This document shows, in pieces, positions 11,600 to 30,694 of a stretch of DNA of 64,000 bases. The position numbers were made by a program, and so were the translations under genes. Within the stretch, counting starts at the first letter, position 1. Each line of letters starts with the position of its first letter. The notes beneath the pieces are model-generated. The model made no database searches. It saw nothing but the letters and a program-made list of their open reading frames with translations, and was not told the DNA's origin. The DNA is from a virus (taxonomy: Duplodnaviria; Caudoviricetes), in the IMG/VR virus record IMGVR_UViG_3300036798_000278, positions 1,546 to 65,545 of that record. The stretch is one strand, 5' to 3'.

Positions 11600-13206
11600 T
11601 GCCGTACGGCGTGGACCCGACCGAGCTGCCAGGTGGGTACGGCGTAGACCCGACCGAGGCACCGCCTGGACCGGCTGCGGTACAGACGGGCTCACCGTCG
11701 TTGATGACGAATTTCCTCTATGGAATGAGGCAGCCGATAGATCAGGCCGCGACTTTGTTGGCAAAGGCGTTTCCGTCGCAAGCGCCCAGCGTTGCCGCCG
11801 CAAATCAGGCGGGGGCTGATGCCGAGAAAGAGTCCGGACTTCCTGGGGTTGCCGGGAAGGTGGCGGAGTTTGCGGGATCTATGGTGCCTCTTGCCGCTGC
11901 GACGCCAGGAGCGATCGGCACGTCGATGTTGGCCCGCCTGGGGTCGGGAGCCGCCACGGGAGCAGTCTCCGGCGCGCTCAATCCGGTCGATCCGAATGAC
12001 CCCAACTTTTGGTCTCAAACTGGTCACAATGCGTTGGTGGGCGGCCTCGCGGGGGGCGCTACTCCTATCGCGTTGGGAGCTGCCGCTCGCGTGGTTAACC
12101 CGAACGCGGTAGATCGCACCGCGCTGCTTCGGGAGGCAGGAGTCTCGCCGACAGTTGGCCAGACTCTCGGCGGCACAGCCGGAAGCATTGAACAGAAATT
12201 GAGTAGCTGGCCGATTGTCGGCGACCTCATTCGATCCGGCCAGTCGAGAGCGCTGGACCAGTTTGACCGCGGCGCCTTGAATCAGGCATTGCAGCCCATA
12301 GGAGAGCAGTTAGAAACGAACAAAATGGGCCGCGACGCTCTGCTTGAGATGAGCAATAAAATTGACAATGCATGGACCGCCGCCATCCCACAAACGGCCG
12401 GGCAATTCGATCCGCAACTGATGAGCGAGATACAGAACCTGCGGACCATGGCGCAATCCACCGCGCGTGGGCCGCAATTTGACAACGTCCTGAAAAGCCA
12501 GATCTTTGATAACATATCGCCCGCAGGGGTGATGAGCGGAGACGCGTTCAAGAACGCCGACAGCGCATTCGGGCAGATCATCCGAGATAACGTCTATGGT
12601 CACGGCGTCCCCTGGGAGGATCGGCAATTCGGTAATGGTGTCAGGACCCTCCAAGCATCAATGCGCGACTGGTTAGGGCGCGTCAATCCGCAGGCGTCAG
12701 AAGATTTAGGAAATGCCAGAACCGCTTATCTGCGTATGCTGCCTATTGAGCGAGCGTCGACAGCGCTGGGCGGCGAACCTGGGGTATTCAGTGCAGCGCA
12801 ACTTCAGGCAGGATCGAAAGCTGTCTCGCCGTCTTTGAAGCAATTCATGACGGGTCAAGCCGTCATGCAGCCATATGCGGAGGCCGGAAAAGCAGTTCTA
12901 GGAAATACCGTGCCGGACTCCGGGACGGCTGGGCGTAGCTTGCTGGCGATGCTTGGGTCTGGCCTCGCGGGGGGAATGGCCGGCCATCAACTGGCGCCGG
13001 AAACGATGGGATACCTAGCCGCGACGGGCATGGGTACCGGCCTCGCTGCGGGCGCCTATTCACCGATTGGCCAACGCTTGGCGACGTTGTTGGCGGCGTC
13101 TCGCCCAGCCGGCGCCCAGCCGGTAGCCAACGCTGTGCGGAATTTCGGCCCGCTCGCCAGCGCTCTCGTCCCGCGGGTCGGGGGCGGATCGAATGCTCCG
13201 CCGTAA
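11599..13206 (+). CDS. DNA ejection/transfer protein
   Basis: 535 aa, Ala/Gly-rich helical protein; third gene of the ejection module; TAATG coupling. Confidence 0.7.
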   Translation: MPYGVDPTELPGGYGVDPTEAPPGPAAVQTGSPSLMTNFLYGMRQPIDQAATLLAKAFPSQAPSVAAANQAGADAEKESGLPGVAGKVAEFAGSMVPLAAATPGAIGTSMLARLGSGAATGAVSGALNPVDPNDPNFWSQTGHNALVGGLAGGATPIALGAAARVVNPNAVDRTALLREAGVSPTVGQTLGGTAGSIEQKLSSWPIVGDLIRSGQSRALDQFDRGALNQALQPIGEQLETNKMGRDALLEMSNKIDNAWTAAIPQTAGQFDPQLMSEIQNLRTMAQSTARGPQFDNVLKSQIFDNISPAGVMSGDAFKNADSAFGQIIRDNVYGHGVPWEDRQFGNGVRTLQASMRDWLGRVNPQASEDLGNARTAYLRMLPIERASTALGGEPGVFSAAQLQAGSKAVSPSLKQFMTGQAVMQPYAEAGKAVLGNTVPDSGTAGRSLLAMLGSGLAGGMAGHQLAPETMGYLAATGMGTGLAAGAYSPIGQRLATLLAASRPAGAQPVANAVRNFGPLASALVPRVGGGSNAPP

Positions 13207-13284
13207 TCGAGCTATGCCTTGGCCTACAGCGACAACCAAGAACGAAGCCAATATCTTCAGCCAGGCCGGATCATCCGGAGCCAT
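13060..13284 (-). CDS. Small membrane-anchored protein, antisense-overlapping the ejection gene
   Basis: MAPDDPAWLKILASFLVVAVGQGIARL...GYRLGAGWARRR; its ATG overlaps the TAA of 13284..13478 (TAATG). Confidence 0.5.
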   Translation of the reverse strand: MAPDDPAWLKILASFLVVAVGQGIARLRRSIRSAPDPRDESAGERAEIPHSVGYRLGAGWARRRQQRRQALANR

Positions 13285-13478
13285 TAGCGCAAGCCTCCGG
13301 TGAAGACAAAATCGATCCCGCGCAGGAACAGCCACGGGATACCAACAAGGATTGCGAATGCGTGCCAGGCCCGAGGATCGGCCAATGCCGCCGACCCTAG
13401 CGGCCCCATCAGAAAGACGATTACCCAGAGCGCCCACCACACCAGCGCGATTCGATCAGCCCAAATGAGAGTTTTCAT
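13284..13478 (-). CDS. Small two-TM membrane protein (superinfection-exclusion candidate)
   Basis: 64 aa, two hydrophobic helices; opposite strand, downstream of the ejection genes. Confidence 0.6.
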   Translation of the reverse strand: MKTLIWADRIALVWWALWVIVFLMGPLGSAALADPRAWHAFAILVGIPWLFLRGIDFVFTGGLR

Positions 13479-13542: not shown

Positions 13543-13917
13543 ATGCTTTTACGCGCGCTTCTCGCGGCGCTCGCGCTGTCGTGGCTGATCTCAACTGCGG
13601 CCGATGCGCAGCAAGTCTATGGGCCGCTGTCAAACTGTTCCGGCACAGTAGGCACTACAGCTGCGCCAGTAGCGTTCCCATCATCCGGAAACGGAGGCGC
13701 GGCGCCACAAGTATATTTGATAATGCAGAACAATAATGCAACGGCTGATATCTGGATTAACGCATTGCCTAGCGGCGTAGCCACAACGACGCAACCGTCA
13801 CTTCATATCTTTCCCGGCTCGTCATTTATCTGGAATGGACCAATCGAGCCCGTGCCGCTTAGCCTCTCGATTATCGCGAGCGCGGCGAGTTCGACCTATA
13901 CCTGTTGGTATCGCTGA
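13543..13917 (+). CDS. Secreted beta-sandwich protein (signal peptide, 2 Cys)
   Basis: MLLRALLAALALSWLISTAADA|QQVY, AxA cleavage site. Confidence 0.8.
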   Translation: MLLRALLAALALSWLISTAADAQQVYGPLSNCSGTVGTTAAPVAFPSSGNGGAAPQVYLIMQNNNATADIWINALPSGVATTTQPSLHIFPGSSFIWNGPIEPVPLSLSIIASAASSTYTCWYR

Positions 13918-16900
13918 TTCACGTGAAACGCAAGTCGCTCGCCCCGATCTGGGCCGCTTTGGCGGCCCTTTTCTTTTGCGGCATCGCGAATGCCGGCCAG
14001 GTGGTCACACCGCCGCCGCCGCAGGCGGCGCCCTCTTGCGGCGGCGGCAACTCGGCTCTCGGATACCCGACCTACGGCGGCCCGCTGCAGTGCGGCACGG
14101 CAACGGCGACGGCATCGATCGCCAACGGATCAAACCAACTCGGCGTATACACTGGGCTCAACACGATCGGCCCCCTTACCCCGGTCAATAACGGTCTGCT
14201 GACGTTTTCCGCCACCGGCGTCCCAACGCCGAGCACGACATTGCCGGGCGGCCTCGCTATCCCCGGATTTGCGCCGCTCGCCTCCCCAGCGTTTACCGGC
14301 ACGCCAACGGCACCTACGCCGGCCACGGCGGACAGCAGCACCACAGTCGCCACGACAGCCTTCGTAAAGGCGCAGGCGCTGGGCTTTACGCCGCTTAATC
14401 CTGCCAACAACCTCTCCGACCTCACCAACGCCGCGACGGCCCGCACCAATCTTGGGCTCGGCTCGGCGGCAACCTTCCCAATCGGGCAGAGCGGCTCGGT
14501 CGTACCATTACTCAGCGCGTCGAATACCTTCTCCGGCGCCGCCCTGTTCTCCAGCAGCGTAACCTTCTCCGGCCTATTGGTCGGGACTCAAGTCTCTTGC
14601 TTGGGCCTCAACAGCAGCAACGTCGTCGTCCTGTCGACCCCCGGATGCGGGACCGGGGGAGGCGGCGGCGGTTCCGGGACGGTGGTCAGCGGTACGGGCC
14701 CTGCCGTCGCGCAATATCTTGCGGGCACCGGAACCGTAGTCGGTGCCGTTACGATTAGCGGCGACGCCACCTTGGCTCAAGGCGGCTCGCTGACCGTCAT
14801 CGGGACAGGTGGCGTACCCTTCGCCGCATCCGCCACAACAAACACCACGGTCGCCTCGAACATCACCAGCGGCACCCTGCCCAACGCCCGCATCGTCGCG
14901 CTGCCGAACGCGAACCTTGCCAATTCGACCGTGAGTTTCGCCGGACATTCAGTCTCGCTGGGCGGCGCCAACCAAGCCGTCGCGATCGGCGATCTGTCGA
15001 GCATCTCAAACAACACGATCGTCGGGAACAACAGCGGCGGCTCCGGAGCGCCCTTGGCGCTAACGTCGGCGCAAGTCTCGACGCTGCTGGGGCTTGGCAC
15101 GATTGCCACACAGAACACGAGCGCTGTGTCGTTCAGCGGCGGCACGATTACCGGTGTGACGTTGACTGGCCTTCCGAGTTGTTCCGGCGGGACGGACGCC
15201 TGTCCGAAATCCTACATCGACGCGGTCTCGGGCGGGCAGCCGCCGCATACCCCGGTAGCGGTTTCGACCGCCGCCGTGCTGCCCAACACCCCGGCCTATT
15301 CGAATGGTCCGGGGACCCTGACCTCGGCGAGTAACACGGCCCTGGTGGTTGACGGCACAACCGTATCCACACTCACAACCCGCGTCCTGGTCGACCAACA
15401 AGCCAGTGGCTTGCAAAACGGCATTTACACGCTGACGCAAGCCGGGACCGGCTCGGTGCCCTGGATACTCACTCGCGCCACCGACTTCAACACTGCCGCA
15501 TCGGGCAACATCGCAACCGGCGCTACCGTGCTGGTCACAGGCGGCAGCACACTGGCGAACAGCTCGTGGTCTTTGTCGAACACAGGGACGATCACCGTCG
15601 GCACGACGGCGCTTACCTTCGTGCAGGTCGGGGCGGCGAACTCTTACACCGCCGACGGCACGACGCTGCAGTTGGTCGGCAGTCAGTTCTCGGCACTCCC
15701 TTCTGGAGTGCTCAACGGGATAACCTCGACACCGAATTCATTGCTTTATCGGGGTTCATCGGCGTGGCTGGGTATTTCTCCGGTCAACAGTGCCGTGGTG
15801 ATCACAAGCGGAGCGGGGCTGCCGAGCGAGAGCACGACATTGCCTTCCGGGTTGACGATCCCCGGATATGCTGCCGCATCAGGCATGACGACCGGGCAAC
15901 TCGCGGTCGCAGGCGGGTCGGCGTCCGTCACATCGAGTCAGCCGTTCGGCCCCACGGGGACTTCGACGGTGGTCGAGACCGATAGCGGCGGCCACATTTC
16001 GAATACCCTGATCACCGGACTTCCCGTCGCGAACTTGGCAAGTTCCTCGGTCATCATCGGCTCCACCAGCGTAGCGTTGGGCGCGACTGCGGCGACCGTC
16101 GCCGGCCTCACACTAACGGCGCCGATTATAAATGGCGGGACTCTGTCGGGGACATTCTCAGGCAATTTTACGTCAACCGCAACTGCGCCAATCTTTTCCG
16201 GGCTCGTAGCGGGGACCGTGATCTCGAATGTTGGCATTGATTCGGGCAATCATCTCGTGCTTGGGCCAGCTCCGCTGACTGTGACTGACGGCACGAATCC
16301 TGTCGCCAACACGGCGTCGATTACGGTCGGCAACTGTTTCGCGGTAGGCGGCAGCGCGGGCGCGGCGACCATCAATTCGACGGTCGTGCTCGACACGCAA
16401 AGCGCAAATGCGGCGTTTGCCGTCCCTAGCGCCGACGCCTGCAAGAATGTCGTGCGAACCAATACGACGACACAGTCCGACACGATTGCTGCGGCAGGGA
16501 GCGCGGGCTTCGGAGTCGGGTTTGGGCTTAGTTACGTCACATCCACGGTGGGCAATACGATCACCCCGGCATTGGGCACCATCGGCGGGCTGTCGTCACT
16601 GACCGTTGGCGTAAATCAATATGTCAGCCTTTTTGCCGACAACGCCAACAATTACCGCGTCGCGCTCGGCGTAGCCGCCCCGCCGTCGCAAACCGGGGCG
16701 ACCTGCTACAAGGACAATTTCACATGGGGTCCCTGCGCGCTCGACACCATCGCGACCGGCGTTACGGCGGCGGGCACCACGCAGGGCGGCGCGACCACGC
16801 TGAGCGCGCAAGCCAACGCCGTCGGCACGGCGGCCGGCAGCTGCCCGGTGGGCGGCCCCTACACGTCCTGCAACGGCGTGGTGCTCGCGTCCTCCGTAGC

Positions 16901-17084
16901 GGTCGGCGATCGGCAGACGGTGTGCGCCGACGGCGCGGCCAACGGCTTCCTAACCTATCCCAGCGGCACCGGCACGATCATGAACGGGTCCGCCAGCGCG
17001 GCGGCGCGCGTTGAAGTCAACAGCTGCAACACGTTCGAGAAGGTTACGACAGGTACAAATGGTCATTGGATCGTCGTTCATTAG
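13905..17084 (+). CDS. Tail-fibre protein with an N-terminal signal peptide
   Basis: KRKSLAPIWAALAALFFCGIANA|GQ; fibre motifs APLASPAFTGTPTAPT, NNLSDLTNAATARTNLGLG, KSYIDAV...RVLVDQQASGLQNGIY...WILTRATDFN. Confidence 0.85.
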   Translation: MVSLIHVKRKSLAPIWAALAALFFCGIANAGQVVTPPPPQAAPSCGGGNSALGYPTYGGPLQCGTATATASIANGSNQLGVYTGLNTIGPLTPVNNGLLTFSATGVPTPSTTLPGGLAIPGFAPLASPAFTGTPTAPTPATADSSTTVATTAFVKAQALGFTPLNPANNLSDLTNAATARTNLGLGSAATFPIGQSGSVVPLLSASNTFSGAALFSSSVTFSGLLVGTQVSCLGLNSSNVVVLSTPGCGTGGGGGGSGTVVSGTGPAVAQYLAGTGTVVGAVTISGDATLAQGGSLTVIGTGGVPFAASATTNTTVASNITSGTLPNARIVALPNANLANSTVSFAGHSVSLGGANQAVAIGDLSSISNNTIVGNNSGGSGAPLALTSAQVSTLLGLGTIATQNTSAVSFSGGTITGVTLTGLPSCSGGTDACPKSYIDAVSGGQPPHTPVAVSTAAVLPNTPAYSNGPGTLTSASNTALVVDGTTVSTLTTRVLVDQQASGLQNGIYTLTQAGTGSVPWILTRATDFNTAASGNIATGATVLVTGGSTLANSSWSLSNTGTITVGTTALTFVQVGAANSYTADGTTLQLVGSQFSALPSGVLNGITSTPNSLLYRGSSAWLGISPVNSAVVITSGAGLPSESTTLPSGLTIPGYAAASGMTTGQLAVAGGSASVTSSQPFGPTGTSTVVETDSGGHISNTLITGLPVANLASSSVIIGSTSVALGATAATVAGLTLTAPIINGGTLSGTFSGNFTSTATAPIFSGLVAGTVISNVGIDSGNHLVLGPAPLTVTDGTNPVANTASITVGNCFAVGGSAGAATINSTVVLDTQSANAAFAVPSADACKNVVRTNTTTQSDTIAAAGSAGFGVGFGLSYVTSTVGNTITPALGTIGGLSSLTVGVNQYVSLFADNANNYRVALGVAAPPSQTGATCYKDNFTWGPCALDTIATGVTAAGTTQGGATTLSAQANAVGTAAGSCPVGGPYTSCNGVVLASSVAVGDRQTVCADGAANGFLTYPSGTGTIMNGSASAAARVEVNSCNTFEKVTTGTNGHWIVVH

Positions 17085-17676
17085 GCGCGTCCTCGCTGCG
17101 CTAATCGTAGGCGCGTCGAGTTCTGCTGCTCTGGCGCAAACCGAAGCACCGCACCCGTATCGCGGCGCGGCCAGTGCCCCGGTCTTCATCTCGACTATAA
17201 ACCTCGCGTCGACCGCTCAGTTCTTCCCATTGCCGACTAACTACAATACCCTGTTTGTTAATTGTCAGGGAATGCTTAACGGTACCGGAAACGGTTACAA
17301 TGTGCTCGTCGGTGAAGGCGGCACCCCGACTTGGGAGACCGGCGCTCATTACACAATTGTCAGGTCCGAAATAAGTGCTGTCGGAGGTCAGACAATTTCG
17401 GGAGGGACCGTCCAGACGAGCATCGAAACCCCGCCATTATCGACAGTAACCGCCGGATCTTTATCGCTATACATTGGAAATGTCGCATCGACATCTTTAG
17501 CAAAGATAGTCACCTTTACTAGCACCAGTATCTATGATCCGGACGGCAGATGGTACTATGAAAACGGATCGGGTTATTGGAATAATGACACAAATCCAAT
17601 AACGGGAATCCAGCTAGTACCTACCCCCAGCGGGGGGTTTGCGGGAGGTACGTGCAGCCTCTATGGGATGAACTGA
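17059..17676 (+). CDS. Secreted fibre-tip/lectin-like beta-sandwich protein
   Basis: Start 17059 gives MVIGSSFIRRVLAALIVGASSSAALA|QT; C-terminal ITGIQLVP..G.F.GGTCSLYG resembles phage fibre terminal domains. Confidence 0.75.
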   Translation: MVIGSSFIRRVLAALIVGASSSAALAQTEAPHPYRGAASAPVFISTINLASTAQFFPLPTNYNTLFVNCQGMLNGTGNGYNVLVGEGGTPTWETGAHYTIVRSEISAVGGQTISGGTVQTSIETPPLSTVTAGSLSLYIGNVASTSLAKIVTFTSTSIYDPDGRWYYENGSGYWNNDTNPITGIQLVPTPSGGFAGGTCSLYGMN

Positions 17677-17678
17677 AG

Positions 17679-18242
17679 ATGATGAGATTCGCAGCCATGC
17701 TTGTGCTTGCGCTGATATCGACGGCAGCGCATGGGCAGACCTACTTTGGCGTGCTTACCTCGTCCCCCAATGCCGGGCCGGGCGGGTCGTGCTGCTCGGA
17801 TGTGAAGACGGCGACCGCCAGCAATGTCCCGGTTCCAACGGATGGTTCGTGCGCCGGATGCTCAGTGATTACGAGCGCGCAAGCCAGCGCCTACTTTGCC
17901 GGCGCAGCGGCCCTCCAGCCAGGGATGGCAACTAACCTGTTGGCTGCCGGGGTAGCAATGACGTTTACGTCGACAACGACGGCAAATGATCATTACGCGG
18001 CGACGGACGCGGCTATACAGACCTTATTGAATTTACAGACCGGTAAGGTCGGCATCGGCGCGGCATCGACCGTCACTGTGCCGGGAATTTCTGGTCCGCA
18101 CGTAATGGGTATGCCGGCGTTCCATGATGTCTACAACGCCGTATCCTCATACCATGATGCCGTGCTGGCGGCGCAGGCAACGGCGCTGACAAACAATACT
18201 GCGCCGGTGTTTCCGGTCGCGACGGCAACGAGTTCACACTGA
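17679..18242 (+). CDS. Secreted protein resembling tail-fibre assembly / DUF4376-like proteins
   Basis: MMRFAAMLVLALISTAAHG|QT; LAAGVAMTFTST...YAATD...PH.M...F..V.NAV..Y pattern recalled from fibre-adjacent proteins. Confidence 0.6.
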   Translation: MMRFAAMLVLALISTAAHGQTYFGVLTSSPNAGPGGSCCSDVKTATASNVPVPTDGSCAGCSVITSAQASAYFAGAAALQPGMATNLLAAGVAMTFTSTTTANDHYAATDAAIQTLLNLQTGKVGIGAASTVTVPGISGPHVMGMPAFHDVYNAVSSYHDAVLAAQATALTNNTAPVFPVATATSSH

Positions 18243-18820
18243 TGATGATGTTACGGGCGAGCCTTCTCCTCATCCTCGTTGCTGTGTGGCCTGCGCACGC
18301 TCAGGTCTCGGCAGACGGCACCGTCTCGCCAAATCCGAAAGGGGTGACAGCGCTCACCAACGCGGCGGGCACATGGACCTGGGGCGCAGCCGCGCCGGGG
18401 CGGGCGGGAGAGTATTACATCAACCTGAACGGCTCGCCCTCGGGGGGGGTGGGGATACTCATGGAGGTTGCCAACGGCGGGAAACTCTATGTCGCTACCG
18501 CCACCCAAGGCTGGTACTTGCGGCAGGGTAACGTGTGGGTCCAAAGCGCCCCGCCGCTCACCGGCCCCACAGGCCCCACAGGCCCTCCCGGTCCAGCCGG
18601 AGCGACTGGAGCGACTGGAGCCACTGGTGCGACGGGCGCACCGGGCGCGGCTGGGCCGCCCGCTTCGCTGACGCTCGGCACTCCGGTCGTCGGCGCGACC
18701 TGTAGCCCCGGCGGCAATAGCGAGTTTGCGACCGACCGCACGGTCACCCCGATAGTTATTAAAATCTGGGTCTGCGATCAGACGCTCAAATGGACGGGCC
18801 CCTTCCTGGTGGCGCAATGA
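18242..18820 (+). CDS. Secreted collagen-like protein
   Basis: MMMLRASLLLILVAVWPAHA|QV; 11 consecutive Gly-X-Y triplets. Confidence 0.8.
   Translation: MMMLRASLLLILVAVWPAHAQVSADGTVSPNPKGVTALTNAAGTWTWGAAAPGRAGEYYINLNGSPSGGVGILMEVANGGKLYVATATQGWYLRQGNVWVQSAPPLTGPTGPTGPPGPAGATGATGATGATGAPGAAGPPASLTLGTPVVGATCSPGGNSEFATDRTVTPIVIKIWVCDQTLKWTGPFLVAQ
18563..18661 (+). repeat. Collagen-like (Gly-X-Y)11 repeat
   Basis: GPT GPT GPP GPA GAT GAT GAT GAT GAP GAA GPP. Confidence 0.9.
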
Positions 18821-21702
18821 GGCGTCGCCTCATCCTCATCCTTTCGCTGCTGCTCGTCTCCGGCGCGGCGGCTGCGGGGTTCTTCCGCGGCGGTCTTCAG
18901 CCGAGTTCCGTCGCGACAATCACGTCCGTCACGGTTACCCCAGGCAACTTCCTTGGCGGCTCGGCGGACGGCACATCTGCCGGGGCAATCGCGGTCAATC
19001 TTTCGATGGGGTCTTTCACCGGGACCATCGCCATCGGCTCAGGCGGGCAGGGAACTGACTTCCGCCTGTCCTCTACCACGCCGCCGGCCAATCTCCTACT
19101 CAACGGGACGCAGGCGGCGGGCAGCTACACGGCAAACATCGTGCCCACCCAGGCGGGTCTAGGCAACAGCGGGACGGCATTCCCGGTCACCATCACCGGC
19201 ACAGCCGGGCAAACCATAGCTTCGATCACCCCGACCAGCTGTTCCTTCACTTCCGGGGCGCAGAACGGCGCAGTCTGCAATCTCGCCGTTACGATGTCGC
19301 CGACCTCGCCCGCCTCGACGGCGGCGCTGTCCCTTACGGGAGCCAATTCCGGCGGCTTCCACCTATCCGGAGCCGGGTGTTCGAATATCTCGTTAGGGAC
19401 CTGCACGATCGAGCAGAGCACGGCGGCCGGCGGGACGCCATCCGGAAATTATTCAGATGTCAGCGCGGTCGCGACACAGGGGGTTTTTGTCGGGCTCCCG
19501 GCCGGCCGGGATGCCAGTACGAATTGGCGGACGGCAGGACTGCAATCGATAGCCGGCATCCCGGCCCGCAATACCCAGTGCGGCTCGACCGTCAACCCGA
19601 TCGGTAGCGGCTCCGACGATACTGCTGCTATCAACAGCGCGATTAGTTCCTGTACGGCAGGGGATTTTGTAAACCTGGGCTCAGGCACCTTCACGATCGC
19701 CGAGGGCCATTTCCCCACTATTAACAAAGGTATAACGGTTCGTGGCCAGGGAGCGGGGGTTACAATCCTGAACCGGCCGACCGGAGTCGGTACTTGGCAA
19801 ACCAACAACGCTACCTTCAGCGGCAGCATCTCAGGCACGACGCTCACCATAGACGCCTCTCCTACGCCGTTCGGCACGATCGTTTGCGGGGGCGCGCACC
19901 CGTCATTTATCGGTGGGGGCGGAGTTACCGCCGGGACGACATGCTCGGCGATTATCTCAGGCTCGGGAGCGGCCGGGACTTACACCGTCAATCACTCGCA
20001 GACCGTTGCTGACGAAGCCCTGACGGGAACACAGTGCGATCAATCTCAAGCATGGGGCGCGACCATTGGGTGTGGCATTCCCGGCAACAATGCAACTCCG
20101 GTTGTGCTTCTAGGAAAGGGGCTTCCTACAGCCTCAGCGACGACGACATTGGCGGCCAATGGAAACCACGGGGCCACCACGATTCAGTTGACCAGCACGA
20201 CCGGCTTCCAGGTTGGGGGTCTCGCGCACATAGACCAGCTTGCATTCGGACAAAACACATCCGACCCGGCGTTTAACAGTGGCACTGGACATGTTTGGAT
20301 GGCTGCGGACGCGTCGGTCACGTGGAATGATCACAACCCGGCGGTTTCGTTCTACGACTCCTCGTGCCTCGGGTACGGCCTGGAGGCGGGGGTGGCGTGC
20401 AGTCCAAACCTGTTCGCGTCGGCTCCCGCGGGCGGTGACGAATGCGCCTACTCCATCCGTTGCGGCGGCGTCCAAGAAGAGGACCACCTGATCACAGCTA
20501 TCGGTGCCGGCCCGTGCCCTGGCGCTGCATGTACGATAACCTTTGATAGCCCCTTGATGAATACATACACAACCGCAAACAGTGCTGGGGCTGTGTCTTG
20601 GCAGACCACTGCGTTTGCTCAACAGGCGGGTCTGGAGAACCTCACGGTCCAGAACGGTGACAATAACAATGTCGAAGTGCAGGGGTGTGTATACTGCTGG
20701 TCGACGGGGGTCGAGGACACCAATTGGCTCGGGCATGGTTTTTCTCTAGATCAGGCGGCATTCCGTTTCGAGCTTGATAACTTCTGGAGCCACAATGCCG
20801 CGTGGCCGTCACCAGGCGGTGGAGGCTATTCTATCGCGCTGACGTTCGGGGTGTCTGAGTGCCTGATCCAAAACGGCATCTCGATGCTGGCGAACAAGGT
20901 AATGGTTGTTCGTGCAAGCGGCGCCGGCTGTGTAGCCGCCTACAACTACATGGACGACAGCTATATATTCTACGATTTGCAATGGCAGGAAATTGGCATG
21001 AACGCCAGCCACCTTGCTGGTTCTCAGTTCATGCTTTTCGAGGGTAACTACTCTGTCAACTACGATGAAGACTCGACCCACGGCAGCGTGGGCCATCACA
21101 CTCTGCTGCGCAACTATGCGACTGGTTATCGTGCGCCGTTTACCGCGATCACCGGGGCTTCGGTCGACGACAAGGCCAACGTCCCCGGCGGCAATGCGGT
21201 GAAGCGCTGTTTCGCCGCCAATATGTATACGGGCTGGATGAGCTACATCGGGAATATCTGCGGCAGCTCGGCGAGTGACAGCAACACTTGGACGCTTAGC
21301 AGCAATCTCGGCGGCAGCAACCCGATTGTCTTCTCCTACGGTTGGAACCCTACATCCGTCGGCGGATCCGGCCCTGATAACGTGGTTGGAACGGTTTATC
21401 CTGGAACTCCGACGGGCACTTACGCGGCCTCGTGCCTGACCGACGCCGATCCCTGCACGACAATTTCAACCGGGAACTACGAGTACCACCCAAACGGCAC
21501 GATCCATTGGGACACACGCGGACCGATGACAATCCCGAATTCCTTCTATCTCGGGAGCAAGCCGTCGTTCTTTGGCGCCAACGCCTGGCCTCCGATTGAT
21601 CCAACCGGCCCGACGGTTGGTGTAATCCCGGCTCAAGCCCGGTGGGCCGCGTGCGTCGCTGCCGGAACGATTACCGCTCACTGTATCTTCAACTTGCCAT
21701 GA
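18817..21702 (+). CDS. Secreted tailspike-like beta-helix (pectate-lyase-like) protein with N-terminal cadherin/Ig-like repeats
   Basis: MRRRLILILSLLLVSGAAAA|GF; GSDDTAAINSAI...V.LGSGTFTI...I..GITVRGQGAG.TIL beta-helix start; ATGA overlap. Confidence 0.8.
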   Translation: MRRRLILILSLLLVSGAAAAGFFRGGLQPSSVATITSVTVTPGNFLGGSADGTSAGAIAVNLSMGSFTGTIAIGSGGQGTDFRLSSTTPPANLLLNGTQAAGSYTANIVPTQAGLGNSGTAFPVTITGTAGQTIASITPTSCSFTSGAQNGAVCNLAVTMSPTSPASTAALSLTGANSGGFHLSGAGCSNISLGTCTIEQSTAAGGTPSGNYSDVSAVATQGVFVGLPAGRDASTNWRTAGLQSIAGIPARNTQCGSTVNPIGSGSDDTAAINSAISSCTAGDFVNLGSGTFTIAEGHFPTINKGITVRGQGAGVTILNRPTGVGTWQTNNATFSGSISGTTLTIDASPTPFGTIVCGGAHPSFIGGGGVTAGTTCSAIISGSGAAGTYTVNHSQTVADEALTGTQCDQSQAWGATIGCGIPGNNATPVVLLGKGLPTASATTTLAANGNHGATTIQLTSTTGFQVGGLAHIDQLAFGQNTSDPAFNSGTGHVWMAADASVTWNDHNPAVSFYDSSCLGYGLEAGVACSPNLFASAPAGGDECAYSIRCGGVQEEDHLITAIGAGPCPGAACTITFDSPLMNTYTTANSAGAVSWQTTAFAQQAGLENLTVQNGDNNNVEVQGCVYCWSTGVEDTNWLGHGFSLDQAAFRFELDNFWSHNAAWPSPGGGGYSIALTFGVSECLIQNGISMLANKVMVVRASGAGCVAAYNYMDDSYIFYDLQWQEIGMNASHLAGSQFMLFEGNYSVNYDEDSTHGSVGHHTLLRNYATGYRAPFTAITGASVDDKANVPGGNAVKRCFAANMYTGWMSYIGNICGSSASDSNTWTLSSNLGGSNPIVFSYGWNPTSVGGSGPDNVVGTVYPGTPTGTYAASCLTDADPCTTISTGNYEYHPNGTIHWDTRGPMTIPNSFYLGSKPSFFGANAWPPIDPTGPTVGVIPAQARWAACVAAGTITAHCIFNLP

Positions 21703-24700
21703 TGATGCGCAGTAATCAGTTACTTTTCGCCGCCTTTGTTCTGCTGTGGGCCTTTGGCGCAAGTGCGCAAATCTCCAATTCACCCTTCACCCAGAGCCTC
21801 AACCTCAATGGCAGCGGGACGCCGCCCACGATCTCATCGGTTGGCTCGACGAACTACACCTTCGCGGCGCAGGCGGGCAATGCCAACTCGACGATCGGCG
21901 CGCTCTCCGTTGCGGTGTCGAGCGGGGCGTTCGGGGGCGCGCTGGCGCTGGCGACGTCAGGCGCATGCACCGGCACGAACAATGGGCTGTTCGCGATCAG
22001 CGGATCGACTCTGCAGATTGGCGCGAGCGATATCACGACGCCGGCCACGTACAGCATTTGCGTGCGCGCGACCGATGCAACCTTCACCAACTCGCCCTAC
22101 TATCAGGCTCTCACGCTGACCGGGACCGGCGCGGGTCTGGTGGTTACAACCTTCACGTTCACGAATGATACCGCAAGCACGCTCCCGGCCGGAACGCCCG
22201 TCAGCTTCGGTCAGGGGTTCCGCTACGGCGATATCATGCCGGGCACCTATCCGCTGATTGTTGACCCGGCCAACAGCAACGCGCCGTTAGCGGGTCAGCA
22301 ATGGGACGAGATCGCGACCTTCAACGAGAACGGCGGCAACGGCTCGTGGCGTCATGCGGTGTGGGCGGCGTGGCTGCCCGCCAGCCTTGCGGCCGGAGCG
22401 ACGAAGCAGCTCGGGTTCCTCACTACGACAGGAACCTATTCGGAGAGCTCGCGCCAGCCTCTCTCCGCATTGTGCAGTGGCGCTGCGTCTCATGACCTGA
22501 AGATCCACTTGACCGACGTGCGCAACCAGAACGACACCGTGCGCGACTCGGGCAATGCAACATTCGATATTTGCAGCAACATCGGCAACACTGGGCGCGA
22601 TGCTCCCCGTCACGTCCGCGCCGGCAATGTTTATGACGAATACATCGTCTCAGGAATGCCCCTCTACACCAGCGGGCACTATGACCCGCTGCTCTATGTG
22701 CAGTGCAACGTTGACATCTTCACCAAAGCCTCCGACGGCGCTTCGGCGGGCGATGTGCGGTGGGTCTGCCACATGCACAATTCTTGGGAGAACGTCACGT
22801 CCGGCAGCACCGGAAATGCCGGCAATCCCGGTCCCGTCGGGTTCGCCAACGATCCGCAGGCCGTCTCCTACCGTGCCGAAATCGACGACGGCGCGAGCGA
22901 CGTGCTGGATTGGAGCAATCTCGACGCGACGGTTGCGAGCACCAGTAACCCGGTCGTGAATGCCGCGAGCAACGGCTGCAATCACCAAGGCGAAACGGTG
23001 TGCTTGTACGTGCCGTCCTCGCTCGGCGCAAACACCTGGTACACCGGGCAGGCGACGCGGGTATCCTCGACCGGAACCCCGGTGGCCGGGCTCACCAACG
23101 GTCAGCTCTACTATGTCTGGCCGTCGAGCAGTGCGACCATTGCGCCCCCCAACACGCAGTACGTGTCATTGGGGACCACGCCCTATGTGGACCAGTTCCC
23201 GATGACTTCCTCGCAAGGCAGCGGCACCACGACGTTCTCGACGCGGGTGCAGCATTATCATTTCGAGACGTGGCAGACGCTCGACTGGACCGGGCAGGAC
23301 AATTGGGCGCCCTTCGGCACGACGACGCGGGTCACGCGGAAGGTCTATCCCGCCCTCACTCCAACGGAGATGCGCTACTGGGAGCAGAGCGGGCTCGTCA
23401 TCCCGATGAACCTGTCGCAGCCGACCCCTAATTTCGCAACGATCTGGGGCGACGGGTTGGGTACGAATTACGAGCCTTTCGGTCGGCTGAACGTGATCGG
23501 AGGCGGCGCGGTCGGTCCGCGGCCCGATTTGGGGATCGTCAACGAGTGGTCGAACAAGGCATTCATCACCCAGGCGCAGGCGGATTGGGACAATGCCCGC
23601 CTGTTCACGCTCGGCACGTCGATGCACGGGTACAGCACCTTGCTCGATGAGTCCACCGGACGCATTTCGCCGCTCAACAACGGCCCTCCCACGGGGGCCG
23701 GCGGCAACGGCAACGGCGGCACCTATGCCGGGCTCGGCGCCCTGCGGAACCAGATAAATTGGATCGGGGTGCCGGCGACGGTGACCGGTATCGCCAACCC
23801 CGACCACAATGACCCGTCGACGTCGGTGGCCGACATTGCCGGCGGCACGATGAATTACGGCACCCAGCTCGACCACATGCCGGCATTCGACGGTTTTACC
23901 TACATGATATTTGGGGATCGGCATTTTCTGGACATGATGCAGTGGCACGGCAACCGCGACTTCGCGCAACAGCGAGTCGGGCCGGGACCGGAGTTGGGGC
24001 AAGGGTATTACCGGGACAACAATGCGAAGTACACCGACGGCAACACATATCACTACTACGGCCTCACGACGGTCTGCTTCCAGGGAAGCGGGTGCGCGTG
24101 GCTTACCCGCGACGTGCTCAATGCTGCCGCCTTCGGGGCCGACAACAGTCCCGAGCGGCAATTGTTCAACGATATGATCACCGAGACGGGTAATTATTGG
24201 CCGCTGTTCCTGGCCTACCGCGACGGGCCCGGCAGCGCAGGTTATAGTCTCTCGATCTATCCGCCCGGCGAGCCCGACACGAGCGGCGCGGGCATCTTGA
24301 ATTCAACTCAGGCGATGACCTACGACGCCAGTGTGGCCTATGAAGGGGCCGCGTGGCTTCATACTCCTGTCTTCAATACGTGGAATTCAAAATTACAACG
24401 ATACATGGAGGGAGTGTGCGGCCAGCAACTCCCCGGCACGATCTCGGATTTTTACTGTACCGACCAAATGACGCAGCCGCAGATCGCCAACGGCAACGGC
24501 GTGCAGACGGGATTTGGCGGCAATGTCGGTCAGTATATGAACGGCACCGACGCTTCCGAGTTTGGAAATTACAGCCTCGGCAGCTCCGGAATGCCAATCA
24601 AGTCCAATGGACAGATGGAGTTTAACGGTTATCCGCCGCTCCAGAGCGGCGATACGATGAAATTTATTTACAATGGGTGGTCTGGTTCCGCGGACGTACC

Positions 24701-27700
24701 CATCGACCAACTCGCCGGCTCCCGCTGGTTCCCGATTATCAATATAGACAATTCCGGCAGTTCCGGGTGGTCGCACACCTTTTCCTTACAGTGCAACACG
24801 GCGGATCACACGACATGGCCGACGCAATGCCCGACGGCCGGCGGACCATTCACGGGCTTTACGCGCGGCGGCGTCCCGTTATCGGGGGTTAGCGCGCCAT
24901 ACTTCCCTAAGCTCCGGCTCACTTTCGATCCCGGCGCCGGGGTTGGCTATGTCAACAACAACTATTCGCAATACGCCGGACAGACCATCAACGGCCTCGC
25001 GATTCTTGGGTACTCGGTTCCGCATGCGCAAGCCAGTCTCGCAAATCGCTGCACGGCCAGCCCAGGAGCGGTCTGCTACAGCTCCACAATGCCGAGCTTC
25101 TGGTGGGACTCCTCGATCGTGGTTCCCGGACTGCCGCTGCCGATCAATACGGCGGAGTGGAAGCTGACGTCGGGGAGCGTGTCAGGGACCACCGTCGCGG
25201 ATTATTCGGCTGGAGACAATCCCGCCACGGTAACCAACGGCCCGCTGACCTTTGGGGCCTTGGGCGCCAACTTCAACGGCACTTCGCAGTATCTAGACAA
25301 CTCGACACTGAAGCCGAACACATCAGCCCTGACGGTCTCGGCGTGGTTCAGTCCCGCCAGCCTTAGCGGCAACCCGAGGCTCGTCGCCAATTCTCAGACC
25401 GACGTTGACCATAAGGGCTTCCAGCTCATGTTCAACGTCGGTGACGGTCCCAACACGGGGTTTTGCGATGTCGGCAACGGCACCGCGGAGGGCAAAGCAA
25501 CCTGGTCGCAGCAGATCTCCATTGGAGCTTGGTATCACTACGCCTGCGTCTATGACGGCGCGACCGTAAAAGCGTACATCAATGGGGTTCAGGTGGCGTC
25601 CACGGCGTTTGCCGGAGGAGCCATCGCTGCGGGCACCGGTCCGGACATCAATGTTGGGCGCAACCCGGCCTACGCCGGCGACTACTTCAACGGCGCCATC
25701 TACGATGTGCAGATCAAAGAGCAAGCCCTCTCGGCCAACCAGGTCCTGGCGCTATACAATGGGACGACGCCGCCGGCGCCCGCCGCCATGGCCTGCGACA
25801 TCGGACCGCCCTACACCGGACCGATCCCTGCCGCCGCACAGCAGGCCGGCTTTACGCACTGCGGCGCCAACTACGATTTCACGTACACCGGAAATTTCAC
25901 CAACACTATCGCGGGCACCGCGTACACGTATAATTGGGGCAATATGTCCACGTGGTTTACCTGCAACAGCGGCGGCGGCGCCCCGTACCTCATGATTTAC
26001 GGCGAGAACACAAATGTCGGATGCGACCAGAGCCATCAACACATTGCCACTGATAGTGGAGTCCAAACATTTGCCCTGACCTATCTGCAATCGGATGCGG
26101 CGGCGGGTCATTATATAGCTAGACTTGAGACACAGGGCAATGGTGCCACCGCCACCTTTAATATGGCGCCGGAGTATTACATAGAATATGTGAAGAGACA
26201 GGACCAGACTACCAGCTGTGCAGGTAATTTCTGCGGGATCAACGCGCTCAGCACTTTCACTAGGGTAGGGGGGGCGCCGTGCTTCATCGGGACCGACATG
26301 GAGTGGGACAGCGGCGCGTCCGGCACCGGCGTTGGGCAAAGCTGGTGGAATATCAGCTGCCCCGGTGGCGCGAGCTACAACGGCACAGTTGCCCCCGGCG
26401 CCACAAGTGCCTCGCCCGTTAACGGGGCCATCGATACGAACGTGCAAACCTGGGGAAATTTGACGACCGGAGACGGTGTCAGCGTAATGGCGTCGTGTAA
26501 CTACTCCGCAGACGGCGCGATCAATGGCCTTACGGCTTCGTCATTTCATAGTTGTTTCTCGAATACTGTTGTGCCGCCGTTTGCCGGCGCTGGTGTGTTT
26601 TCGCAAGGCCAGCCACTGTATATGTATATGTTTGGGGGAGAGGATAATAATCAAGTTCCTTTGAGCGTTCCGTCAGTAACGACATACATGCAGCGTATTA
26701 CCGTGTGGGAATGTCCCGGCTATAAAACCGGCGCGTGCATTACCAACCCGGCGGTAACGACCGCGCCGCCAAGCGGCGGTTCCTCTGTCTGTAATAGCCC
26801 CGCCGTACCTCATCCGGCACAGGCGGTCGGCTTCACGACGCTCGCGTACTGCGCCGACTTCACCCAGCAGGCGGCCACGAACAACGTGATCAACGGGGCC
26901 GCCCAAACAATGAACTGGACCGCCACGACAGGCGGTAATTTAAATTGGATGGACTGCAATGGGGCAACAAATTCGCCCCGTGTAGGGCCAATCGCCGGTA
27001 AGCAGTGGATCCCCTTCTCCCTCGGTATAGGTCCAGCAAGCATACCTTGCGGCGCCTTTTCGGTGGCTCCCGATACGGCATCCGGCGTCAATGCCTTGCA
27101 GCTAACGGCGATTCCTTCCTACGGAAATACCCTCGTTCAAATGAGCACGGGGATTGACTCTTGCAGCACGTCCACAAATCCCTGCTATGAGGTCTTTCCC
27201 ACTACTAATCTTTACGCCGAGATCAGCTGGCGGCTAGGCTCGACCAACCTCAGCAACTTCACCAGCACCGGCAATGTCGTGGCTGATTTTTGGTCGTGGT
27301 ATGCCAACACGACAACAAATGCCGGGTGTCTTGAAATCGACTTTATTGAATACTTTAACTTTGCTCCCAAAGGGCCAGGGTATGCCGTAGGATGCAAGCC
27401 GACGATAGCCGGCGGAACCGCAAGCGATACATATACCCTCGACGCTAATTACCACACACTAGGAACTCTGGTATCCTCAAATGGCACAAACTTTTCAACG
27501 GCGTGCGTGTATAAGGACGGCGTTGAAACGATGACTAGCAACCAGTGTACCACAGCGTCTGGGGGCAGCAGTGAAGTTTACACCCAGCAGGGTTATTTGG
27601 TGCTAATGAATGCCGCAGATTGGCCCACCGCCTTGAGTAGCGGATCATACAATGTTGATATAGCGTGGATAAGAATCTGGTCGTGCGCCGGGTGGAACAC

Positions 27701-27767
27701 TACGGGGAATCCGGCGACGACCAGCAATACCTGCTCTGTGGCATCGCCCCCCACGACGCCGCCATGA
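21699..27767 (+). CDS. Giant (2022 aa) secreted multi-domain glycan-binding/degrading protein: cadherin-like, PcRGLX-like, LamG and two GH16-like domains
   Basis: MMMRSNQLLFAAFVLLWAFGASA|QI; TPVSFGQGFRYGDI...GSWRHAV (lyase N-domain-like); WYHYACVYDG..VKAYINGVQ...FNGAIYDVQI (LamG); EIDFIE GH16 motif at 27333-27350. Confidence 0.8.
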   Translation: MMMRSNQLLFAAFVLLWAFGASAQISNSPFTQSLNLNGSGTPPTISSVGSTNYTFAAQAGNANSTIGALSVAVSSGAFGGALALATSGACTGTNNGLFAISGSTLQIGASDITTPATYSICVRATDATFTNSPYYQALTLTGTGAGLVVTTFTFTNDTASTLPAGTPVSFGQGFRYGDIMPGTYPLIVDPANSNAPLAGQQWDEIATFNENGGNGSWRHAVWAAWLPASLAAGATKQLGFLTTTGTYSESSRQPLSALCSGAASHDLKIHLTDVRNQNDTVRDSGNATFDICSNIGNTGRDAPRHVRAGNVYDEYIVSGMPLYTSGHYDPLLYVQCNVDIFTKASDGASAGDVRWVCHMHNSWENVTSGSTGNAGNPGPVGFANDPQAVSYRAEIDDGASDVLDWSNLDATVASTSNPVVNAASNGCNHQGETVCLYVPSSLGANTWYTGQATRVSSTGTPVAGLTNGQLYYVWPSSSATIAPPNTQYVSLGTTPYVDQFPMTSSQGSGTTTFSTRVQHYHFETWQTLDWTGQDNWAPFGTTTRVTRKVYPALTPTEMRYWEQSGLVIPMNLSQPTPNFATIWGDGLGTNYEPFGRLNVIGGGAVGPRPDLGIVNEWSNKAFITQAQADWDNARLFTLGTSMHGYSTLLDESTGRISPLNNGPPTGAGGNGNGGTYAGLGALRNQINWIGVPATVTGIANPDHNDPSTSVADIAGGTMNYGTQLDHMPAFDGFTYMIFGDRHFLDMMQWHGNRDFAQQRVGPGPELGQGYYRDNNAKYTDGNTYHYYGLTTVCFQGSGCAWLTRDVLNAAAFGADNSPERQLFNDMITETGNYWPLFLAYRDGPGSAGYSLSIYPPGEPDTSGAGILNSTQAMTYDASVAYEGAAWLHTPVFNTWNSKLQRYMEGVCGQQLPGTISDFYCTDQMTQPQIANGNGVQTGFGGNVGQYMNGTDASEFGNYSLGSSGMPIKSNGQMEFNGYPPLQSGDTMKFIYNGWSGSADVPIDQLAGSRWFPIINIDNSGSSGWSHTFSLQCNTADHTTWPTQCPTAGGPFTGFTRGGVPLSGVSAPYFPKLRLTFDPGAGVGYVNNNYSQYAGQTINGLAILGYSVPHAQASLANRCTASPGAVCYSSTMPSFWWDSSIVVPGLPLPINTAEWKLTSGSVSGTTVADYSAGDNPATVTNGPLTFGALGANFNGTSQYLDNSTLKPNTSALTVSAWFSPASLSGNPRLVANSQTDVDHKGFQLMFNVGDGPNTGFCDVGNGTAEGKATWSQQISIGAWYHYACVYDGATVKAYINGVQVASTAFAGGAIAAGTGPDINVGRNPAYAGDYFNGAIYDVQIKEQALSANQVLALYNGTTPPAPAAMACDIGPPYTGPIPAAAQQAGFTHCGANYDFTYTGNFTNTIAGTAYTYNWGNMSTWFTCNSGGGAPYLMIYGENTNVGCDQSHQHIATDSGVQTFALTYLQSDAAAGHYIARLETQGNGATATFNMAPEYYIEYVKRQDQTTSCAGNFCGINALSTFTRVGGAPCFIGTDMEWDSGASGTGVGQSWWNISCPGGASYNGTVAPGATSASPVNGAIDTNVQTWGNLTTGDGVSVMASCNYSADGAINGLTASSFHSCFSNTVVPPFAGAGVFSQGQPLYMYMFGGEDNNQVPLSVPSVTTYMQRITVWECPGYKTGACITNPAVTTAPPSGGSSVCNSPAVPHPAQAVGFTTLAYCADFTQQAATNNVINGAAQTMNWTATTGGNLNWMDCNGATNSPRVGPIAGKQWIPFSLGIGPASIPCGAFSVAPDTASGVNALQLTAIPSYGNTLVQMSTGIDSCSTSTNPCYEVFPTTNLYAEISWRLGSTNLSNFTSTGNVVADFWSWYANTTTNAGCLEIDFIEYFNFAPKGPGYAVGCKPTIAGGTASDTYTLDANYHTLGTLVSSNGTNFSTACVYKDGVETMTSNQCTTASGGSSEVYTQQGYLVLMNAADWPTALSSGSYNVDIAWIRIWSCAGWNTTGNPATTSNTCSVASPPTTPP

Positions 27768-28651
27768 CAAGGAGTTTCGTAGGATGGCTGTGGCTGTTGA
27801 GCGGCTTGCCCGTCGGAATCGCCCTCATATTCCTACCACCCTCGGCACAGCTTCTTTGTTTCGTCCTCTTCGTGCCGCTGGAGACCGGGCACTCGCTCTC
27901 GCCGATCGTGCTGGCATGGACGCACGGCGGCTTCCGCCGGCAGGTGATTTACGCACGCCCGCGTAAATATATCCTGCTTCCGACGCTGGCGTTTCTAGCC
28001 GCCGTCGCGATCGGCGCGGCGGCGCAGGCCGGGGTTACATCCTATGCGGCAGGGGATTCGATCCGCCGCGTTCCGACCTTCAGCGATTGGTCTAACCCGT
28101 TTCTCCTATTGGGGTGGTTCTACTCGACCTGCAACCTCTACCACTTCGGGATGCAGAACTTCGGGGTATGGCGACTGTGGAGCAATACAAATGGACGAGG
28201 ACAAGGCGCGCGGCTGGATAATTGCCGTCGCGATTTCTATGCAGGTAATTGGCGCATCGCTAGTCATGATCGGGCTGTACGGTGGGTTCAGCTAACGATT
28301 GTGGCGGGCGGCACGGTCGCTGTCTATCTCACGCTGCCGCGGCTGTTCCACGACCCTTGGGTATTCTTTCTGCTTACCGGCATAGTATCGGTCAATCACT
28401 GGGTGGTCGACCTCGGGCTCTCGTGCCGCGTCGCGAAGCGCGGCGGCGTGTTCATCGCGGGTGTTCTCGCGGCCGGCTTAGTGGGGTTTGTGTGGGTAGT
28501 GCCGACTCCGGGCGGCATGATGATTCGGATAATCCCGGTCATCATCTGCGCGCGGCTGGGGTTGGGCTTCGTCCACTTCCTCTACTCGCGCTGGGTTTGG
28601 CGGCTAAGCGATCCGCTGGTGCGGGGAACCATAGGTAGGAGTTTTGTATGA
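27764..28651 (+). CDS. Polytopic membrane protein with four His-containing motifs (putative membrane metalloenzyme)
   Basis: Multiple TM helices; ETGHS, YHFGMQNFG, VNHWVVD, VHFLYSRWVWRL; ATGA overlap with the giant gene. Confidence 0.75.
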   Translation: MTRSFVGWLWLLSGLPVGIALIFLPPSAQLLCFVLFVPLETGHSLSPIVLAWTHGGFRRQVIYARPRKYILLPTLAFLAAVAIGAAAQAGVTSYAAGDSIRRVPTFSDWSNPFLLLGWFYSTCNLYHFGMQNFGVWRLWSNTNGRGQGARLDNCRRDFYAGNWRIASHDRAVRWVQLTIVAGGTVAVYLTLPRLFHDPWVFFLLTGIVSVNHWVVDLGLSCRVAKRGGVFIAGVLAAGLVGFVWVVPTPGGMMIRIIPVIICARLGLGFVHFLYSRWVWRLSDPLVRGTIGRSFV

Positions 28652-28812: not shown

Positions 28813-28934
28813 GCGACCCGCAGGTGCGCGCGACCATCGGGCGCGATCTGTTGGGGCGGCGGCAGGTATCTGATTTCACGCATTTTCCACGTGCAATGGA
28901 ATGCCAAAATTGGAGTATGGAAAACAGAGAATGA
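28809..28934 (+). pseudogene. 41-codon ORF starting with a relic copy of the 3' end of 27764..28651
   Basis: MSDPQVRATIGRDLL versus upstream SDPLVRGTIGRSFV; ATGA overlaps at both ends. Confidence 0.5.
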
Positions 28935-29943: not shown

Positions 29944-30080
29944 GCTACGGCTGGTGGGAGGAGTGGGTCGGGATGATTTTTGGTAGCCGGGACGCGTGGC
30001 GTAGATGGGCTATGGCCGCGATCAGAAAGCAAGAGACCGATAAGCGCGACAATGAACATGCAATCGTCCTGCAGACGTGA
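29940..30080 (+). CDS. Small hypothetical protein (46 aa)
   Basis: Hand translation MSYGWWEEWVGMIFGSRDAWRRWAMAA...; ATGA overlap. Confidence 0.45.
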   Translation: MSYGWWEEWVGMIFGSRDAWRRWAMAAIRKQETDKRDNEHAIVLQT

Positions 30081-30092
30081 TATACAGTAGGC

Positions 30093-30350: not shown

Positions 30351-30354
30351 CTTC

Positions 30355-30681: not shown

Positions 30682-30694
30682 GGGAGCGGCACAA

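Follow-up and report, generated by a model that had tools for sequence, protein, structure and literature searches.

A block of predicted Sec-exported, cysteine-paired fibre-like and tailspike-like proteins in the fibre slot of a putative temperate short-tailed phage

Is the host-recognition apparatus of a tailed phage always folded in the cytoplasm, as is taught for tailed-phage assembly as a whole, or can it be exported, matured in the periplasm and joined to the particle at lysis? The question is raised by a block of seven genes (14 kb, 22% of the genome) in the 65.5-kb IMG/VR virus record IMGVR_UViG_3300036798_000278, rated complete by CheckV, of which bases 1546-65545 (64,000 nucleotides, nt; "the window" hereafter) were analysed. 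The block lies in the slot after the ejection genes, as do the fibres and tailspikes of P22-, T7- and Mx8-like podoviruses, and each of its products is predicted to begin with a Sec-type signal peptide. Sec export and oxidative folding of these proteins are very likely, because the signals are kept between relatives, the cysteine (Cys) counts are even, the Cys pairs co-vary and signal and Cys go together among homologues. That the block is a host-recognition apparatus in exported form, matured in the periplasm and joined to virions at lysis, is the reading we favour; the sequence evidence for and against it seems to us evenly poised.

Seven tandem genes, six of them closely joined, had been placed at 13543-27767 in a preliminary description of this DNA, and their coordinates and lengths were borne out (Table 1); the six junctions measure -13, -26, +2, -1, -4 and -4 nt, so that all seven genes are coupled. 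The same description had read Sec-type N-termini on all seven. A signal was called where a basic n-region came before an h-region of some 8-15 uncharged, hydrophobic residues and positions -3 and -1 were small. By inspection, the seven N-termini, and that of an eighth signal-bearing protein of 411 amino acids (aa) added by this analysis, show K/R ahead of a hydrophobic core free of charges, and then a small-x-small box. Applied strictly, the rule flags 64 of 1361 greedy open reading frames (ORFs) over all loci (4.7%); the eight flagged in the window are six block genes, the gene of the 411-aa protein and one small membrane ORF. The 187-aa gene escapes the strict rule, its signal being plain by eye; seven of the eight proteins pass. 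The chance of seven signals standing consecutively is below 1e-9.

Table 1 Features of the window. Positions are those of the window; the vertical bar marks the predicted cut, and Cys counts are those of the mature proteins.
Feature	Position	Strand	Predicted signal	Mature Cys	Remarks
124-aa protein	13543-13917	+	ADA|Q	2	first gene of block
1059-aa fibre protein	13905-17084	+	ANA|G	14	
205-aa protein	17059-17676	+	ALA|Q	2	
187-aa protein	17679-18242	+	AHG|Q	4	
192-aa collagen-like protein	18242-18820	+	AHA|Q	2	
961-aa beta-helix protein	18817-21702	+	AAA|G	26	
2022-aa lyase-like/lectin protein	21699-27767	+	ASA|Q	42	
411-aa protein	54687-55922	+	AYA|Q	6	eighth signal-bearing protein; between terminase and portal genes
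Tail adaptor	897-1922	+			Pfam SU10_adaptor, PHROG 6013
336-aa protein	2215-3225	+			signal-less; 36% Gly; between adaptor and nozzle genes
547-aa Pro-rich repeat protein	4067-5710	+			signal-less; 0 Cys
125-aa protein	5710-6087	+			signal-less; paralogue of C-terminal domain of 547-aa protein
Nozzle-like protein	6088-7608	+			PHROG 5107
Acyltransferase and three ejection-type proteins	8241-13206	+			ejection-type proteins with 0 Cys; PHROGs including 4470 and 6121; define slot
295-aa polytopic membrane protein	27764-28651	+			ATG overlaps stop of 2022-aa gene (ATGA)
Lysis region	28901-33389	+			membrane proteins, lipoprotein, SLT transglycosylase
SLT transglycosylase	32238-32771				lysis region

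The signals recur in related blocks. Two metagenomic contigs are syntenic: L004/L007, whose nozzle protein is 72% identical to that of the window, and L005, which has orthologues of six block genes. A survey of related contigs for conserved signals, as had been proposed in the preliminary description, found them kept in the L004 and L005 orthologues; in both blocks every gene has one. These signals are unalignable yet signal-like, the mature parts are 38-77% identical, and the mature Cys counts are even with one exception. Between relatives the block proteins have conserved N-termini and swapped C-termini, a mosaicism that is typical of receptor-binding proteins and appears here as would be expected of them. 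In the nearest relatives, the putatively exported proteins are scattered through the tail module, beyond one slot. More signal-bearing, Cys-paired proteins are encoded between the adaptor and nozzle genes or upstream, at 6350-9998 of L008 and at 335-2470 and 6109-6489 of L007.

The Cys pattern agrees with oxidative folding outside the cytoplasm. All eight mature Cys counts in the window are even (Table 1); the ejection, portal and terminase proteins have 0-1 Cys. About two dozen signal-bearing proteins of L004, L005, L007, L008 and L010 follow the same even-Cys pattern, with one clear exception (17 Cys). When the 1059-aa protein is aligned with its three full-length homologues (P0002-P0004, all with signals), five Cys pairs are invariant, and the pairs 426/433 and 811/846 are present or absent jointly. 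Sequence-adjacent Cys pairs of the 961-aa family were found with both members in 97 cases, one in 32 and neither in 125 (shifted-register control: 5, 85 and 102); the corresponding counts for the 2022-aa family are 69, 31 and 54 (control: 34, 73 and 19). Among 120 homologues of the 1059-aa fibre protein, the 14 with a signal have a median of 10 Cys and an even number in 13, and the 106 without a signal have a median of 2 and an even number in 47%, that is, random parity. Fibres of cultured phages that share the shaft module lack a signal, and their Cys number 0-1. The premise of Sec export and oxidative folding that the alternatives of the preliminary description shared is thus strongly supported by Cys parity, co-variation, the association of signal and Cys, and the kept signals.

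Whether such proteins reach virions is best approached through the ordinary fibre of this phage family. In relatives, the slot after the ejection genes holds a signal-less fibre with the N-terminal domain M-[A/S/P]-(R/W)-(D/N)GSG...LPMGG, here called the canonical anchor, whose position and conservation suggest that it binds the particle; it was seen in Bradyrhizobium phage ppBjS10J-1, in many IMG/VR loci and in prophages in metagenome-assembled genomes (MAGs) of Alphaproteobacteria. In L010, a canonical fibre is followed by two signal-bearing, Cys-paired proteins. Beyond the preliminary description, this analysis adds that the same ordinary anchor also occurs behind a signal peptide in more distant relatives. 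A profile search for the canonical anchor found it in L039 (nozzle 34% identical) behind a signal, MKSYIKSS-MAALAVAAIGITWA|S-RDGSG; the ATG of this fibre overlaps the ejection-gene stop and is preceded by GGAG. A database search with the L039 fibre gave 3116 homologues, and 33 of the 114 top matches with a recognisable anchor have a signal-like extension of 22-27 residues. The extensions have K/R and a hydrophobic core, as a rule with a perfect AxA box after it; cutting at the predicted site would leave [A/S/G/T]-RDGSG, in the register of the canonical M-[A/S/P]-RDGSG after methionine removal. On the anchor tree the signal trait shows about 6 transitions, against 29 with shuffled labels; the switch between exported and cytoplasmic forms appears to have occurred several times on the same anchor domain.

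The clearest case is L101, a 38.6-kb temperate podovirus with the gene order adaptor, nozzle, acyltransferase, four ejection genes, signal-type fibre, lysis genes and integrase. Its signal-type fibre is the only fibre candidate found in the 21 kb examined. A strongly conserved particle-binding domain behind a signal, on what is apparently the sole fibre, would be hard to explain unless exported fibres reach virions, and the signal-bearing anchors of L039 and L101 appear to favour virion attachment. A subgroup of the extensions (P0356, P0363-P0366, P0395, P0398, P0405, P0433 and P0441) ends in ...LM[AG][PSA]|R(D/N)G, often with Pro before the anchor and with no good AxA box; these may be signal anchors that stay uncut and hold the fibre at the inner membrane. 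In the window, the canonical anchor was found by none of tblastn, hmmsearch and hhalign. A weak tblastn match to it at 29601-29798 lies within a small membrane-protein ORF and was judged spurious.

The block proteins themselves combine fibre parts with enzyme-like parts. In the 1059-aa protein the signal leads into a conserved N-domain of about 135 aa, which holds one Cys pair; the protein also has fibre repeats, a shaft module and a C-domain rich in Cys. The fibre repeats claimed in the preliminary description are confirmed by two virion-resolved fibres: the repeat NLxDLxNxxxARxNLGL matches 9zd7 gp92, and residues 417-575 match 9efk orf22 (E value 3e-10); the module is common in cultured-phage fibres. 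A fibre-tip domain had also been claimed and was recovered, weakly, in the 205-aa protein, of which the C-terminal ~120 aa align with the tip of the 401-aa canonical fibre of L042 (BLASTP pairwise E 1e-5), the alignment reaching both C-termini; in L005 the orthologue bears a signal and shares 38% identity. The collagen also claimed there is marginal: in the 192-aa protein, PHROG tail-fibre families match through a Gly-X-Y stretch (residues 107-140), and the Pfam Collagen match (residues 108-139, E 1e-5) has 25.6 bits, just below the cut-off of 27.2. The L005 orthologue of this protein, 63% identical in the N-terminal half, has a weak Collagen match too. The 124-aa protein has no family match and no detectable relatives outside this lineage; its L004 orthologue is 68% identical and keeps the signal. 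The 187-aa protein, likewise without detectable relatives beyond this lineage, has no match in Pfam, PHROGs, NCBIfam or Atlas and has a syntenic, signal-bearing counterpart of 196 aa in L005. A role for it as fibre-assembly chaperone was considered and set aside, being without family, Atlas or structure support. In the 411-aa protein no similarity to the canonical fibre anchor could be detected; its N-terminal part has a match in a signal-bearing L008 protein encoded between the adaptor and nozzle genes.

The beta-helix tailspike fold proposed in the preliminary description was recovered in the 961-aa protein by structure prediction. The AlphaFold2 model of this protein (predicted template modelling score, pTM, 0.72) is confident for residues 221-961, which form a right-handed parallel beta-helix, and of low confidence for the N-region (1-220). 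Foldseek matches the helix to 7w1c, 9k4a, 4ru4, 4y9v and 8bke (E 3e-11 to 1e-5), and the best folds in the Protein Data Bank (7w1c, 9k4a, 4ru4 and 4y9v) are phage capsule depolymerases and tailspikes. Among the sequence homologues, 64 of 82 have a signal-like N-terminus; several carry PF12708, several are annotated as pectate-lyase or GH28-like, and some lie on megabase bacterial contigs. The 2022-aa protein is made up of the signal, a lyase-like core of several domains and about 1000 aa (144-1150), a ConA-like lectin domain (1194-1349; Pfam Laminin_G_3, E 3e-25) and a Cys-rich C-terminal third. The core has no Pfam match; its model (predicted local distance difference test, pLDDT, 85.5) is closest in fold to the PL26 rhamnogalacturonan lyase 5xq3, which it matches over the full length but only modestly (Foldseek E 7e-7, template modelling score, TM, 0.33, identity about 10%). 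All homologues of the core have signals. On another phage contig, a core relative of 61% identity fills the tailspike slot, immediately ahead of the lysis genes. Stand-alone relatives of about 1000 aa (P0207 and P0212) lie in bacterial exopolysaccharide loci, next to GT4, polysaccharide deacetylase and Wzy_C genes; they are about 40% identical to the phage core and, like the 2022-aa protein, have a signal and paired Cys. They are cellular and have a single domain set, whereas the phage version is fused to the lectin and to a long Cys-rich C-terminal region and stands in the tailspike slot.

Compared with known systems, the block shares with canonical fibres and depolymerases (7w1c, 9k4a, 4ru4) the shaft and repeat modules, the beta-helix, N-conserved/C-variable mosaicism and, by weaker matches, a collagen-like stretch and a tip domain. 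It differs in that canonical fibres (ppBjS10J-1, BUCT555) have no signal, 0-1 Cys and cytoplasmic assembly, whereas block members have a Sec-type signal and paired Cys; the canonical fibre of this phage family has an N-terminal anchor and the window has none. Podovirus fibres and depolymerase tailspikes are the closest viral kin. The closest system in design is the MAT family of Bdellovibrio bacteriovorus, fibres with a signal, a conserved beta-rich N-domain of ~130 aa, phage-fibre-like trimers and swappable tips [Caulton et al. 2024, PMC10769870]. The 1059-aa protein is like them in its conserved ~135-aa N-domain directly after the signal, a likeness of architecture only. MAT fibres are encoded by chromosomal genes of a predatory bacterium, outside any virus structural operon, and are displayed on the cell; disulfides are not mentioned in the paper (PMC10769870). 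Passage of phage late proteins through host Sec before lysis is known from Sec-exported and signal-anchor-release (SAR) endolysins, such as fOg44 Lys44 and P1 Lyz, which have genuine signal sequences and are held outside the cytoplasm until the holin fires (PMC6116005). These are single small lysis enzymes, whereas the block spans 14 kb and would serve host recognition.

If the favoured reading is right, the coupled genes would be translated late in infection; Sec would carry each product across the inner membrane, signal peptidase I would cut it (exposing Gln in six of the eight proteins), and the host Dsb system would form the disulfides in the periplasm. There the fibre-like proteins (1059, 205, 192 and 411 aa) would fold and oligomerise, as would the two putative polysaccharide-degrading enzymes (961 and 2022 aa). 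Heads with tails would be assembled in the cytoplasm, and when holin, endolysin and spanin merge the compartments the fibres would dock onto the particles. Export itself, cleavage, timing, docking site and presence in the virion are what we infer here. Purified P22 tailspikes complete spike-less heads in vitro.

Several points weigh against attachment to virions. The block proteins of the window have no recognisable particle-docking domain; the signals are predicted ones, called by a strict home-made rule and inspection; the L101 fibre has 0 Cys, so that disulfide stability is not the whole reason for export; and Stenotrophomonas phage BUCT555, the only cultured relative with this anchor, has it without a signal. 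No description of signal-bearing virion fibres of tailed phages was found in the literature, and we know of no tailed phage that adds exported parts to its virions. For the window itself, the data leave standing both fates named in the preliminary description, virion fibres and a secreted adhesin/glycanase complex. On the second, the proteins would be exported and never enter the virion, being free enzymes or adhesins that are periplasmic and then released at lysis, or made by the lysogen, and a signal-less ORF between adaptor and nozzle would be the real fibre. Possible roles would be the stripping of exopolysaccharide or O-antigen around the burst, the destruction or masking of receptors on debris or on the lysogen, or surface fibres like those of the MAT family. 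The phage is temperate, so that expression in lysogens is possible, and the 961- and 2022-aa proteins are built like secreted enzymes of bacteria, their families including signal-bearing bacterial proteins, members in exopolysaccharide loci and chromosomal stand-alone relatives. The preliminary description had seen no signal-less tailspike elsewhere, which was mostly right; it had overlooked the three fibre-like, signal-less ORFs at 2215-6087. These could be a particle-bound stub or the true fibre, but the Gly- and Pro-rich ORFs have no recognisable receptor-binding domain. None of the three has a family match. Small opposite-strand genes split the block from the ejection genes, but a similar opposite-strand interruption, the sieA/immI insertion, precedes the tailspike gene of P22. 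Phages are known to release free depolymerase (PMC6116005), and the MAT family is a case of exported, phage-fibre-like trimers put to use by a cell (PMC10769870); yet a 14-kb block would be a costly outlay if its functions were accessory, nothing about the 1059-, 205- and 192-aa members (fibre, tip and collagen-like modules) looks enzymatic, and conserved N-termini with variable C-termini are typical of particle-bound receptor-binding proteins. Above all, relatives have the signal on the canonical anchor, and the apparent sole fibre of L101 must reach the virion. We regard free, exported proteins as a serious possibility that on balance we doubt.

The export step itself could also be questioned. 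The proteins might fold and dock in the cytoplasm, the N-terminal helix being kept as a structural or membrane-active tail element and the Cys oxidising after release; fast folding and trimerisation could outrun Sec, the subgroup ending in ...LMAP|RDG or ...LMGP|RDG has no good cleavage box, and the Cys-free fibre of L101 is of the same tenor. However, most extensions have textbook n-, h- and AxA c-regions with a predicted cut that recreates the canonical mature N-terminus, their sequences vary freely, as is usual for signals, the bacterial enzymes homologous to block proteins bear signals too, and 42 Cys in 21 co-varying pairs of sequence neighbours are far better explained by folding in the periplasm than by random oxidation once released; we consider folding without export improbable. 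Still less credence is due to an artefact of annotation, in which the true starts would lie downstream of the hydrophobic segments or the ORFs would not be genes. Start codons were indeed picked by eye, the longest ORF of two window genes starts with TTG or GTG, and high-GC DNA yields long spurious ORFs; but the chosen starts give tight coupling at six of six junctions, the feature recurs in sequence-divergent orthologues and in dozens of database homologues, signal-type canonical fibres have no start codon at the canonical position, and the homologues are strong and the folds confident. Such an error is very improbable. Export with attachment at lysis can be widened to a statement on a lineage, namely that phages of diderm soil bacteria practise two-compartment assembly, with Sec-exported, disulfide-bonded fibres and depolymerases added at lysis and several switches on the anchor domain; we put this forward tentatively, with confidence just short of even.

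If it is true, the final step that confers infectivity would depend on host Sec, signal peptidase, Dsb and the mechanics of lysis, all of them new points of host control or defence. The many secreted enzymes of bacteria could be a source from which phages take disulfide-dependent domains for receptor binding or depolymerisation, and the block would show such recruitment; disulfide-stabilised fibres may then explain the persistence of soil phages. Annotation pipelines in which a signal is grounds for setting a protein aside as non-structural would overlook receptor-binding proteins in many uncultured phages, to the harm of host prediction. A clean, testable pair is offered by the one anchor domain in its signal-type and canonical versions.

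Of the signal-less ORFs between adaptor and nozzle, the 547-aa protein has repeats like EVLIGWIPPPPxPIV and a C-terminal domain of ~100 aa, a second copy of which makes up the next gene. In the nearest relative (L007, 6526-9582) this domain forms the C-terminus of a 1018-aa, Gly-rich, signal-less protein, and a stand-alone copy again comes after it. The adaptor contains an inserted domain of ~95 aa (residues 163-257) that, in BLAST comparison with the relatives, only the nearest relative, L008, shares; it is possibly a docking site that co-varies with fibre type. L008 also has signal-bearing genes adjoining the adaptor. The adaptors of L009 and L010 have a different insertion, and those of most relatives (~235 aa) have none.

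Downstream of the block, the 295-aa membrane protein has no family match; a homologue of 33% identity follows the last signal-bearing gene of L004 (21409-22146). Possible roles are enzymatic modification of surface polysaccharides and assistance to the exported proteins. As a DsbB/VKOR-like or exosortase-like helper the 295-aa protein was rejected (no CxxC, fibres without PEP-CTERM ends, no family match). In the lysis region, a lipoprotein-like ORF at 31175-31780 (+) with LLSGC and a Pro/Thr-rich tail is a candidate outer-membrane spanin subunit.

The window also encodes an integrase-like protein (weak match), a Rad52-like recombinase, a helix-turn-helix repressor and a large terminase, and is predicted to belong to a temperate short-tailed phage of a diderm host; short tail and diderm host are read from the nozzle protein, since it is distantly related (25-33% identical by tblastn) to those of podophages of Bradyrhizobium, Myxococcus (Mx8), Brucella, Sulfitobacter and Stenotrophomonas. 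In bacterial genomes the closest prophage relatives are at most 39% identical and lie mostly in Alphaproteobacteria MAGs. Gln stands at +1 of the predicted cut in six of the eight signal-bearing window proteins (sites read by eye); this may be a clue to the host or reflect capping of exported proteins by pyroglutamate. Bacteroidetes, with a few other lineages, are described as typically having so high a frequency of Gln after the cut (PMC5837995).

Between the ejection genes and the block lies one small opposite-strand gene, 13284-13478 (-); L004 has three at the same place, 8824-9571 (-), and one of these opposite-strand genes encodes a two-helix membrane protein. On a different phage-like contig, L087, a 774-aa signal-bearing fibre homologue with 16 Cys (10001-12325) stands alone just before a GH108 endolysin gene; this contig also has epimerase and glycosyltransferase-like genes.

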